Shown: piece by piece, positions 6,697 through 34,914 of the stretch
How the letters are laid out: each line of letters begins with the position of its first letter
Numbering within the stretch: position 1 is the first letter of the stretch
NCBI RefSeq assembly: GCF_004010195.1
Contig: NC_057746.1
Coordinates: 12,951,812 to 12,986,725, forward strand
Reading direction: 5' to 3'
DNA length: 34,914 nt
From: Chiloscyllium plagiosum
Lineage: Eukaryota
The notes under the pieces: model-generated
Database searches by the model: none
Seen by the model: the letters and a program-made list of their open reading frames with translations, nothing else
What the model was told of the DNA's origin: nothing
Made by a program: the position numbers and the translations under genes

Positions 6697-6835
6697 ATCA
6701 GTGACACTGATCCCAATTTATATCTAATATTAGATCCCCTTTTCCTTCTGATCAGAATGTGACACTCATCCACCATTTCTAAATGATATAACATTCCCCC
6801 CTCCCTCTGATCAGATTCTGATTATCTATTAATGA
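6697..6835. repeat. ~2.5 further copies of the ~58-bp repeat, directly upstream of the alpha2 exon
   Basis: TAGATCCCCTTTTCCTTCTGATCAGAATGTGACACTCATCCACCATTTCT and CCCCCCTCCCTCTGATCAGATTCTGATT match the 820-1420 unit. Confidence 0.75.
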
Positions 6836-6866
6836 TTGATTACTGACCCCTGTTGGTCACTCACAG

Positions 6867-7142
6867 GAATTCATATTTTCCAATGGACCCGTTCAGCTGA
6901 GGTCAGTGATGACGGCTCCATGAAGAGATGGATGAGTTTTGGATTTGATGGAAAGGATTACATTAGTTTAGAACCAGACAGAATGAGGTGGGTTGCAGCA
7001 AATCACTTTGCAGTGCAAACGAAAGAGAAATGGGATTCGGATCAAGCCTGGAACAACTACTGGGAATCATATCTGCAAGAAAGTTACATTGAATATTTGA
7101 ATAAGTATTTGCAAGCAGGAAAGGAATATTTCTCAAGGAAAG
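6867..7142 (+). CDS. MHC class I alpha2 domain exon
   Basis: tcacag|GA...AAAG|gtatgt, 276 nt. Translates (G)IHIFQWTRSAEVSDDGSMKRWMSFGFDGKDYISLEPDRMRWVAANHFAVQTKEKWDSDQAWNNYWESYLQESYIEYLNKYLQAGKEYFSRK, with class I motifs GxHxxQ, FDGKDYI, TKxKW and YLxxGKE. Confidence 0.95.
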
Positions 7143-7259
7143 GTATGTATTTCTGTTTTTATGCCATGTTCTGATCTAACCTCACTGATCTATGAAACCG
7201 CTCTCCCATTCCATTCAGTGTCTGTCTGTTGTTTGTGGTTTCACCCTTTCCCATCACAG

Positions 7260-7537
7260 TTCAGCCTGAAGTGTTCATCTCCAGGAGGGAGCCCAATGGT
7301 CAGGACAAGCCACTCACTCTCTCCTGCCTGGTCACTGGGTTTGATCCTGTAGACATCGAGGTGACCTGGCTACGGAATGGAGAGGTCATGTCTGAGACCC
7401 AATCCTCGGGGTTCTACCGAACCATTATGGGACCCATCAGATCCAGAAAGAGATTGAGATCAATGCTGGGGATGAGGATCAATACTCCTGTCAAATTGAA
7501 CACAGCAGCCTGGCAGAGGCCCAGCTCTATCAGTGGG
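7260..7537 (+). CDS. MHC class I alpha3 (Ig C1-set) exon with a 1-nt frameshift at 7408-7411
   Basis: atcacag|TT...TGGG|gtaagg. Reads (V)[50 protein letters not shown], then in the shifted frame [43 protein letters not shown]1 motifs LxCxxxGFxP, W and YxCxxxHxSL are present. Confidence 0.93.
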
Positions 7538-10000: not shown

Positions 10001-11676
10001 TGAAATAACTCCACAGAAGCCGATATCTTTTAACCAAGTCACCCTTTATTGACACATGGAAAGTCCTTGACACTAGTCCAGCTCCCTCAGAGACAACTCT
10101 CAGTGTGTCAGAGTAGAACATAGAACATAGAACAATACAGCACAGAACAGGCCCTTCGGCCCACGATGTTGTGCCGAACATTTGTCCTAGCTTAAGCACC
10201 CATCCATGTACCTATCCAATTGCCGCTTAAAGGTCACCAAAGATTCTCACTCTACCACTCCCACAGGCAGCGCATACCATGCCCCCACCACTCTCTGGGT
10301 AAAGAACCCACCCCTGACATCTCCCCTATACCTTCCACCCTTCACCTTAAATTTATGTCCCCTTGTAAAACTCTGTTGCACCCGGGGAAAACGTTTCTGA
10401 CTGTCTACTCTATCTATTCCTCTGATCATCTTATAAACCTCGATCAAGTCACCCCTCATCCTTCGCCGTTCCAACGAGAAAAGGCCGAGAACTCTCAACC
10501 GATCCTCGTACGACTTCCTCTCCATTCCAGGCAACATCCTGGTAAATCTTCTCTGCACCCTCTCCAAAGCTTCCACATCTTTCCTAAAGTGAGGCGACCA
10601 GAACTGCACACAGTACTCCAACTGTGGCCTAACCAAAGTCCTGTACAGCTGCAACATCACTTCACGACTCTTGAATTCAATCCCTCTGCTAATGAACGAT
10701 AATACTCCATAGGCCTTCTTACAAACTCTATCCACCTGAGTGGCAACCTTCAAAGATCGATGTACATAGACCCCAAGATCCCTCTGTTCCTCCACCTGAC
10801 TAAGAACACTACCATTAACCCTGTATTCCGCATACTTATTTGTTCTTCCAAAATGGACAACCTCACACTTGGCAGGGTTGAACTCCATCTGCCACTCCGC
10901 AGCCCAGCTCTGCATCATATCTAAGTCCCTCTGCAGCCGACAACAGCCCTCCTCACTGTCCACAACTCCACCTATCTTCGTATCATCTGCAAATTTACTG
11001 ACCCACCCTTCGACTCCCTCATCTAAGTCATTAATAAAAATTACAAACAGCAGAGGACCCAGAACTGATCCCTGCGGAACTCCACTTGTAACTGGGCTCC
11101 AGGCTGAATATTTACCATCTACCACCACTCTCTGCCTTCGACCGGTTAGCCAGTTTTCTATCCAATTGGCCAAATTTCCCTCTATCCCATGCCTCCTGAC
11201 TTTCCGCATAAGCCTACCATGGGGAACCTTATCAAATGCCTTACTGAAATCCATGTACACTACATCCACTGCTCTTCCCTCATCCACATGCTTGGTCACC
11301 TCCTCGAAGAATTCAATAAGACTTGTAAGGCAAGACCTACCCTTCACAAATCCGTGCTGGCTGTCCCTAATCAAGCAGTGTCTTTCCAGATACTCATAAA
11401 TCCTATCCCTCAGTACCCTTTCCATTACTTTGCCTACCACAGAAGTAAGACTAACAGGCCTGTAATTCCCGGGGTTATCCCTATTCCCTTTTTTGAACAG
11501 GGGCACAACATTCGCCACTCTCCAGTCCCCTGGTACCACCCCCGTTGACAGTGAAATGTCTGACATTCCTCGTTATCTGTCAGCCAGAGGTCCCTGATTG
11601 GACCAGATAAATAGCCCCAATCTGGGAACTCATATTCTATGATATCCACCTGGCTGACCTCATTGCTATCACAATA
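10001..11676 (-). repeat. 3' LTR of the Gypsy element (10001-10113 + ~11555-11676), split by a CR1 insertion
   Basis: Both halves align to 15777-16009 (TGAAATAA...AAAGTCCTTGAC...TGTCAGCCAG...CCCTGATTGGACCAGA...CTGGCTGACCTCATT). Confidence 0.8.
10114..11554 (-). mobile_element. Young 5'-truncated CR1-type LINE with an open RT frame and (TTCTATG)n tail
   Basis: ORF 10247-11566 has NYRPVSLTS, QHGF, DFSKAFDKVPH, GVPQGSVLGP and FADD. One premature TGA at 10247-10249 near the C-terminus; no endonuclease or ORF1. Tail TAGAACA repeats at 10114-10134. Confidence 0.95.
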
Positions 11677-14887: not shown

Positions 14888-15449
14888 ACATAAATGATTT
14901 GGATGCAAGCATAAGCGGTACGGTTAGTAAGTTTGCAGATGACACCAAATTTGGAAGTGTAGTGGACAGCGAAGAGGGTTACCTCAGATTACAACAGGAT
15001 CTTGACCAGATGGGCCAATGGGCTGAGAAGTGGCAGATGAAGTTTAATTCAGATAAATGCGAGGTGCTGCATTTTGGGAAAGCAAATCTTANNNNNNNNN
15101 NNNNNNNNNNNNNNNNNNNNNNNNNNNNNNNNNNNNNNNNNNNNNNNNNNNNNNNNNNNNNNNNNNNNNNNNNNNNNNNNNNNNNNNNNNNNNNNNNNNN
15201 NNNNNNNNNNNNNNNNNNNNNNNNNNNNNNNNNNNNNNNNNNNNNNNNNNNNNNNNNNNNNNNNNNNNNNNNNNNNNNNNNNNNNNNNNNNNNNNNNNNN
15301 NNNNNNNNNNATGGATATATGAATAGGAAGGGTTTGGAGGGATATGGGCCGGGTGCTGGCAGGTGGGAATAGATTGGATTGGGATATCTGGTCGGCACGG
15401 ACGGGTTGGATTGAAGGGTCTGTTTCCATGCTGTACATCTCTATGACTC
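14888..15449 (+). mobile_element. CR1 3' fragment (spans an N gap) inserted in Gypsy gag
   Basis: SKFADDTKFGSVVDSEEGYLRLQQDLDQM before the gap; GYMNRKGLEGYGPGAGRW and a 3'UTR ending CTCTATGACTC after it. Confidence 0.9.
15092..15310. other. Assembly gap (219 N)
   Basis: Run of N. Confidence 1.
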
Positions 15450-16955: not shown

Positions 16956-17063
16956 AAATTGCAGAAAACAGAGTGGAGCATTTCCATCTTATTATTGTTT
17001 TTGGAATAGTCTCTGCAATGGCTGCAATATTCGGAATAATCATCTGGAAAAGGCCTTGGAGAG
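16956..17063 (+). CDS. MHC class I connecting peptide/transmembrane exon
   Basis: tttcag|AA...AGAG|gtaaga, 108 nt, phase 1-1. (E)IAENRVEHFHLIIVFGIVSAMAAIFGIIIWKRPWR: hydrophobic span followed by a basic stop-transfer. Confidence 0.88.
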
Positions 17064-18053: not shown

Positions 18054-18085
18054 CTTCTGATGTTGCTGTTCCAGCTTCTTCATGA
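18054..18085 (+). CDS. MHC class I cytoplasmic exon 2, coding part (exon 18054-18089)
   Basis: tttattttctcag|CT TCT GAT GTT GCT GTT CCA GCT TCT TCA TGA TTCA|gtaagt gives (T)SDVAVPASS*. Confidence 0.75.
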
Positions 18086-19451: not shown

Positions 19452-19951
19452 NNNNNNNNNNNNNNNNNNNNNNNNNNNNNNNNNNNNNNNNNNNNNNNNN
19501 NNNNNNNNNNNNNNNNNNNNNNNNNNNNNNNNNNNNNNNNNNNNNNNNNNNNNNNNNNNNNNNNNNNNNNNNNNNNNNNNNNNNNNNNNNNNNNNNNNNN
19601 NNNNNNNNNNNNNNNNNNNNNNNNNNNNNNNNNNNNNNNNNNNNNNNNNNNNNNNNNNNNNNNNNNNNNNNNNNNNNNNNNNNNNNNNNNNNNNNNNNNN
19701 NNNNNNNNNNNNNNNNNNNNNNNNNNNNNNNNNNNNNNNNNNNNNNNNNNNNNNNNNNNNNNNNNNNNNNNNNNNNNNNNNNNNNNNNNNNNNNNNNNNN
19801 NNNNNNNNNNNNNNNNNNNNNNNNNNNNNNNNNNNNNNNNNNNNNNNNNNNNNNNNNNNNNNNNNNNNNNNNNNNNNNNNNNNNNNNNNNNNNNNNNNNN
19901 NNNNNNNNNNNNNNNNNNNNNNNNNNNNNNNNNNNNNNNNNNNNNNNNNNN
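19452..19951. other. Assembly gap (500 N)
   Basis: Run of N; the round size suggests an estimated or placeholder length. Confidence 1.
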
Positions 19952-34515: not shown

Positions 34516-34914
34516 TCAGTCTTGTGCATAATTAACACTAGCAATAATAGAAGATTCAAGCCCCTTCAATCTCACGTGAACTTGCTGGTGTCTCTGTAAA
34601 TTAGAAGATCGACTAAATCCCTTCTCACACACTGAGCAGATGAATGGCCTTTCTCCAGTGTGAACCCGCTGATGTGTCAAAAGCTCAGATGACAGTGTAA
34701 ATCTCTTCTGACACACAGGGCAGATAAAAGGCCGCTCCCCAGTGTATACACCCTGGTGTGTCAGCTGGTGGGATACATCGGTGAATCTCTTCCCACTCAT
34801 AGAGCATGGAAATGGCCTTTCCCCTGTGTGAATTCTCTGGTGTGCAATTAGATGAGGTGACTTTCTGAATCCCTTCCCACAATGAATGCAAGTGAATGGT
34901 CTCTCATCAGTGTG
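34516..34914 (-). CDS. C2H2 (Kruppel-type) zinc-finger protein, C-terminal 4 fingers (5'-partial)
   Basis: Open frame from the window edge: [113 protein letters not shown]...QD*. TGERP linkers; candidate AATAAA on - at 34355-34360 and 34329-34334. Confidence 0.93.

Follow-up and report, generated by a model that had tools for sequence, protein, structure and literature searches.

The shark class Ib lineage UEA was set out by Almeida et al. 2021 (J Immunol 207:824), whose abstract is said to describe it as found only in sharks, bamboo shark included, as related to UCA and as being without the nine anchors; the same authors reportedly gave UEA a hydrophobic groove. According to the accessible part of a 2025 review (PMC12562908), UBA and UEA are the two expanded class Ib families of sharks, and Verissimo et al. 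2023 (PMC10751288) describe UDA, in single copy, as clustered with multicopy UEA. As to how the N-terminal end of the groove is closed, the available portion of Wu et al. 2021 (PMC8236899) states that the helix is lifted by G100 together with the C101-C164 bridge, which brings W167 to block the P1 end, that G26 lets Y7 reach the P1-end pocket and, by citation, that MICA is unlike classical class I at the G100 kink. The same disulfide that is missing in the shark genes treated below is missing in HLA-A*02:01 C101/C164 mutants, where, in the available text of PMC6926029, bridge loss abrogates the interaction with TAPBPR, an effect ascribed to destabilisation of the alpha2 domain; the shark genes differ in tolerating this loss across six shark orders. 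Nothing usable was found in the literature on low-expression HLA alleles with Cys164.

The gene studied here lies in a window (the whole stretch analysed, 34,914 nucleotides) of Chiloscyllium plagiosum. Its family resembles UEA as described in being multicopy, in lying in an MHC-Ib cluster beside single-copy UDA, in having been seen only in sharks, in its relation to UCA, and in not conserving the anchors as a set, while the C. plagiosum copy differs in keeping six alpha2 anchors and in its frameshifted alpha3. Taking the parts together, we think it quite likely that this is a UEA-type, multicopy family without the alpha2 disulfide, with a groove open at the N-terminal end of the ligand, and that the C. 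plagiosum copy is a transcribed pseudogene. The features mapped in the window are:

6867..7142, + strand: alpha2 exon of a shark non-classical MHC class I gene (in all likelihood UEA-type), no Cys; 92% identity to C. punctatum XP_072406485.1
6896..6898, + strand: codon for HLA position 101 by alignment, GCT, Ala; family norm Val
7085..7087, + strand: codon for HLA position 164 by alignment, TAC, Tyr; family mostly Leu or Phe
7143..7259, + strand: alpha2-alpha3 intron, 117 nt, in frame with its first stop at 7172-7174; in two RNA-like runs, identical contigs extend into it from alpha2
7260..7537, + strand: alpha3 (Ig C1) exon; its length of 278 nt is one base too few for whole codons
7408..7411, + strand: G run, site of the alpha3 frame break; one extra G in collapsed family contigs of three runs
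16956..17063, + strand: connecting peptide/transmembrane exon, where the shifted frame stops at about 17007-17009; 95% identity to P0004
17496..17528, + strand: first cytoplasmic exon
18054..18085, + strand: last coding exon, with normal stop codon; 90% identity to the end of P0004
1..830, no strand: tandem-repeat block, probably within the alpha1-alpha2 intron; paralog model P0025 has a similar repeat translated directly behind alpha1

The leader and alpha1 exons lie outside the window, a tblastn of which gave no credible alpha1 match; by-eye reading of the loose end of spliced contigs from runs X5 and X7 places Arg at HLA position 84, in the end of alpha1. The RefSeq model XP_043533873.1, a 100% match to the alpha2 exon, starts at a Met inside alpha2, passes the frameshift uncorrected and omits the transmembrane exon. 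Assembly gaps occur at 15092-15310 and 19452-19951.

The alpha2 exon (276 nt, phase 1, AG/GT ends) translates into an open class I alpha2 domain with zero Cys, and its gap-free alignment to PDB 7cpo_A (E 8e-19) fixes the HLA numbering. The initial annotation, made by eye, had reported a Cys-free exon of 92 codons with Ala (GCT) at position 101 and Tyr (TAC) at 164 and with Y123, T143, K146, W147, Y159 and Y171 all present, and every one of these assignments is borne out by the alignment, the cysteine replacements also by contigs of public runs. One contig of run X1, whose independence from the assembly is uncertain, is identical to 6760-7193 with 0 differences, and both codons are matched by contigs of X5 and X7; since identical contigs come from X1, X5 and X7, the exon is not an assembly error. 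G100 is replaced by Ser and W167 by Tyr, points absent from the initial annotation, as is the alpha3 frameshift downstream.

Relatives were collected in two protein searches (76 matches, and 120 of 134 matches listed) with a word-indexed method of limited sensitivity. A set of 96 domains was defined by at least 50% alpha2 identity, with exclusion of the model of the window gene itself and of any alignment shorter than about 60 residues; isoforms stay in this set, so its rows are not independent. A second, hand-picked set comprises 64 near-full-length members, with fused and short models left out. Among the matches listed, the family occurs in at least 13 named shark species of six orders, none of the 96 domains has both alpha2 cysteines, C101 is absent from all 93 domains that reach this position, and C164 is found in nine of 96. 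Position 101 in these listed matches is Val in 86, Ala in 3, Leu in 2, Ile in 2 and uncovered in 3. The near-full-length members agree, with V101 in 61/64 and C101 in 0/64, while position 164 is more varied (L 21, F 17, Y 6); every one of the 64 keeps the alpha3 Cys pair. Both alpha2 cysteines are present in seven of eight control proteins (five UDA, one classical, one UAA/UBA-like), the eighth, dogfish UCA, having Val at both positions. The nearest relative, C. punctatum XP_072406485.1, is an intact protein of 346 aa with 92% alpha2 identity, and has Val101 and Ser164.

On the aligned sequences, cysteine loss is a family-wide lineage trait and not decay, because this intact, 92%-identical counterpart is also without both residues. 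The initial annotation had favoured a lineage trait over random decay and was right to do so; its check of whether intact paralogs also lack the pair came out positive in XP_072406485.1 and other family members. Its supporting argument, that C101 to Ala takes two base changes, was misplaced. With Val the family norm (86 of 96 domains among the matches listed) and also the residue of the nearest counterpart, Ala101 of the C. plagiosum copy most likely derives from Val rather than directly from Cys. Unpaired cysteines occur in alpha1 at P0004 columns 59 and 86 of alignment A2 (25/64 and 8/64 members, never together), and could act as dimer mediators in some sub-clades. A replacement disulfide was considered and rejected, as these two extra-Cys columns never co-occur and 18 of the 64 members have no Cys at all in alpha1 and alpha2.

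The family is multicopy, with many alpha2 domains per species on one chromosome (at least 96 domains, isoforms included), and its named matches, among those listed, are all from sharks, one family match being unnamed. Its position beside UDA in the MHC-Ib cluster was shown in white shark, where the model LOC121291255 is a fusion, with a family member as its first half and UDA as its second; this locus stands among the MHC-Ib cluster rows in the available part of Verissimo et al. 2023 (PMC10751288). In the query alignment from the same source, as far as it was available, a nurse-shark sequence, 'UCA_NODE_26056', has a Cys-less alpha2 with 62 of 92 residues identical to our exon by eye count, dogfish UCA is also Cys-less, and the UAA, UBA, UDA, UFA and UGA rows all have both cysteines. 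The label UEA has 0 occurrences in the available part of that supplement, in which the family member is tagged UCA, a tag that would be older than the UEA name.

A careful alpha2+alpha3 tree of 21 rows places the family and UCA apart from UAA/UBA-like and UDA rows at 89/87 and pairs the window exon with the C. punctatum gene at 89/92, while a family clade without UCA has only 85/50, so that support is modest; a tree of this kind had been proposed in the initial annotation. A quick tree of 36 rows agrees (supports 81 and 98), and a quick alpha2-only tree is poorly resolved, with UCA inside the family and outgroups beside the window exon at support 32. Dogfish UCA (Squalus acanthias, AAN78091.1 / Q8HWI9) is not a close ortholog, having 37% alpha2 identity against 50-92% within the family and a long separate branch. 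Like the family it has no alpha2 Cys, is without G100, W167 and Y7, and has W97, W152 and W156; unlike the family it has also lost T143, K146 and W147. The genomic neighbor UDA (nurse shark QGX07421.1), which has its leader sequence in common with the family, and classical UAA (Triakis O46847; nurse shark 6lup) have the same domain layout and predicted fold but keep G100, C101, C164, W167 and Y7, at 32-44% alpha2 identity. Neither cysteine of the classical disulfide of UAA, UDA, UBA, UFA and UGA is encoded in the window exon.

Because the family is multicopy, has been seen only in sharks, groups with UCA and, in white shark, adjoins UDA within the published MHC-Ib cluster, it fits the descriptions of UEA, and we hold with high confidence, from these descriptions rather than a labelled UEA sequence, that it belongs to that published lineage. 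The ordinary explanation is that the disulfide loss is ancestral and common to UCA. A separate, undescribed Cys-less shark lineage, outside both UEA and UCA, would be consistent with the fact that no UEA-labelled sequence entered our direct comparison, but seems very unlikely: the family is the multicopy neighbor of UDA in the published cluster, it already served as a query for the group that named UEA (available part of PMC10751288), and no second multicopy family beside UDA appears among the matches listed. Loss of the pair through pseudogene decay of the C. plagiosum copy, which does carry a frameshift, has a negligible probability given intact members without the pair in at least 13 species; the initial annotation had named retention of C101 and C164 by the closest relatives as the sign of decay, and those relatives do not retain them. 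Its candidate, an unusual shark non-classical class I gene, stands as to non-classical, and the family fits published UEA; its question of whether a Cys-less sublineage was already published is largely answered by the public family and dogfish UCA sequences in the available PMC10751288 query alignment. The gene is already annotated and relatives without the cysteines have been public for a long time; the family is very probably the published UEA lineage. No statement of the Cys loss in UEA/UCA was found in the literature searched, the UEA-defining paper apart, and the available portions of PMC6523485, PMC4364491 and PMC6769792 have nothing on it.

The nine anchors occur in the 64 members as follows: Y7 in 0, Y59 in 25, R/Y84 in 14, Y/F123 in 60, T143 in 48, K146 in 57, W147 in 64, Y159 in 13 and Y171 in 45. 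All nine are found together in no member, the best having seven (2/64) and most five or six. All six alpha2 anchors are present in the C. plagiosum exon and in 7/64 members, and the T143/K146/W147 triad is intact in 46/64. G100 and W167 are each found in 0/64 and G26 in 12/64; the intact C. punctatum counterpart has T7, F59, R84 and N159. As read from these columns the anchor pattern is lopsided, the C-terminal clamp being mostly kept and the N-terminal pocket not. The claim of the initial annotation that classical anchors are retained thus holds for the six residues of this exon and is overstated for the family, with Y7 and W167 in 0/64. The residues Q96, G120, D122 and W133 are invariant in the family and D119 nearly so, a retention that fits normal folding and pairing with beta2-microglobulin. 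For the intact counterpart from C. punctatum, AlphaFold2 predicts a class I fold, with a pLDDT of about 87-96 in most of alpha1/alpha2, and nurse-shark class I 6lup is the best structural match (TM 0.86 by target length); this confidence in a chain without the disulfide may reflect only learned class I folds, and the model is silent on bound ligand. Many MR1 fold matches were also returned, and kinship to MR1 was rejected as their explanation in favor of a shared fold and PDB redundancy.

We propose that intact members fold as beta2-microglobulin-binding class I molecules in which packing of Val101 against a mostly hydrophobic residue 164 (Leu/Phe) would replace the bridge. The groove would be classical where the ligand's C-terminal end lies but open or remodelled towards the N-terminal end, and peptides or peptide-like ligands would be held by their C-terminus in an aromatic groove formed by W97, M114, F116, W152, Y155 and W156. 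The open N-terminal end is suggested by the joint loss of G26, Y7, G100, C101-C164 and W167 in the family and UCA (G26 remains in 12/64); against it counts the partial survival of the N-terminal pocket, as Y159 and Y171 in the C. plagiosum copy and Y171 in 45/64 members. Since loss of the bridge in HLA-A2 abrogates the TAPBPR interaction, family molecules may load ligand otherwise than HLA-A2 does. A stronger version, which we consider unlikely but worth stating, is that in the UEA/UCA clade the N-terminal lock was dismantled as one unit while UEA kept the C-terminal clamp, giving a half-open, class-II-like groove for N-terminally extended peptides or lipopeptides; in the literature searched (the UEA-defining paper apart) no statement of such lock loss with a half-open groove was found. 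What deserves to be retained, in our view, is a pattern that intact paralogs could put to the test: the N-terminal lock has been lost in a coordinated way and the C-terminal clamp has stayed. A disulfide usually regarded as nearly invariant is dispensable across a whole shark family, lost with other residues that close the A pocket, and this offers a natural test of class I folding and ligand loading without C101-C164, for which the right subject is the intact C. punctatum counterpart rather than the C. plagiosum copy.

As for that copy, its alpha3 exon lacks one base at the G run 7408-7411 in the assembly, and spliced as is would be frameshifted into a predicted stop in the transmembrane exon. 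The copy appears to be transcribed, as X5 and X7 contigs join the end of alpha1 to the exact alpha2 exon and X5 has zero depth in the upstream intron; both runs are flagged 'DNA?' and no matching run is recorded as RNA, so that they are read as RNA from this pattern. Contigs identical to the copy run from alpha2 into the following intron, which may weakly hint at decay of a spliced, stop-bearing message. The contigs that cross the break have an extra G, but they merge collapsed paralogs and show six or seven further differences, and therefore neither confirm nor refute the frameshift; the copy's own alpha3 variant is in no contig, and a single raw read over 7407 is uninformative. A raw single-cell run gave eight reads from about 2% of the run, with 0 on alpha2, and is silent on expression. 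Within 20 bases of the break lie two substitutions, R-to-L at a residue that is Arg in 64/64 members and D-to-Y at HLA 238, where Tyr is found in 0/64. A test of the copy for extra decay was not significant (four departures from conserved columns, and 12/64 members have four or more). The frameshift would seem to be real, although its break lies in a homopolymer of a many-copy exon, and judged on sequence the copy is probably a pseudogene.

Two other accounts of function deserve weight, one of the family and one of the copy. Intact members might bind no peptide at all, with a groove filled or narrowed by aromatic residues that holds a hydrophobic small molecule or stays empty in the manner of MR1/CD1 or MIC, T143, K146 and W147 then being structural. 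The absence of any member with all nine terminal anchors is in keeping with this, as are the aromatic and groove residues (W152 in 63, W156 in 64, M114 in 64 and W97 in 47 of the 64 members), the cited departure of MICA at the G100 kink (available portion of PMC8236899) and a mean groove hydropathy of -0.04, against -0.69 to -0.89 in five UDA and -0.46 in one classical protein. Yet the family ranges from -0.67 to 0.70 and overlaps the few controls, with P0113 at 0.09; the polar K146 (57/64) and T143 (48/64), known ligands of the peptide C-terminus, are kept, and groove positions vary widely among paralogs. We rate this account a little short of even, and keep to a C-terminally held ligand as our working view. 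The C. plagiosum gene, for its part, could be a functional UEA-type gene, a faulty assembly or a rare (polymorphic) null allele then accounting for the alpha3 frameshift. The break does lie in a G run, within an exon common to many copies (X1 contig depth 657 over alpha3 and 19 over alpha2, about 35x, which is not a copy number), the transmembrane and cytoplasmic exons are intact, as is the counterpart in the sister species, and X5 and X7 contain contigs spliced from alpha1 to alpha2 that are identical to the exon. We find this doubtful, in view of the R-to-L and D-to-Y changes so near the break, the frame left uncorrected by RefSeq, and the identical contigs that enter the intron, with no spliced alpha2-alpha3 joint among the 24 of 65 contig pieces listed. 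A transcribed pseudogene remains our reading of the copy.

Some further observations concern the cluster and the window. (i) The 117-nt alpha2-alpha3 intron, which has stops in the C. plagiosum copy, is open in paralog P0058, and contig depth over 7143-7259 is substantial in X5 and X7; from these two points, the family may have intron-retaining isoforms or secreted products of alpha1-alpha2 only. (ii) RefSeq models P0002, P0003, P0005 and P0107 fuse adjacent class Ib genes (family with family, family with UDA, UDA with UFA-like), and are probably annotation artefacts that are useful as synteny evidence. (iii) The leader peptide is nearly identical in family and UDA (P0004, P0114, P0116, P0119) although alpha2 is only about 33% identical, which suggests leader-exon sharing or conversion within the cluster. 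(iv) In the available part of Supplemental File 10 of PMC10751288, the row 'Pamandae_UHA' is highly divergent and has no alpha2 Cys, a possible further Cys loss outside the UEA-type family. (v) The introns of the window gene are filled with pieces of LINE reverse transcriptase and other repeat remnants. The fragment at 10247-11572 on the - strand, open over 441 aa, is a LINE-type reverse transcriptase that we take from its motifs to be CR1-like. (vi) An open frame at 34561-34914 on the - strand encodes repeated C2H2 zinc fingers joined by HTGERPF linkers, one of the fingers being degenerate, and runs off the end of the window; it is a separate zinc-finger gene.
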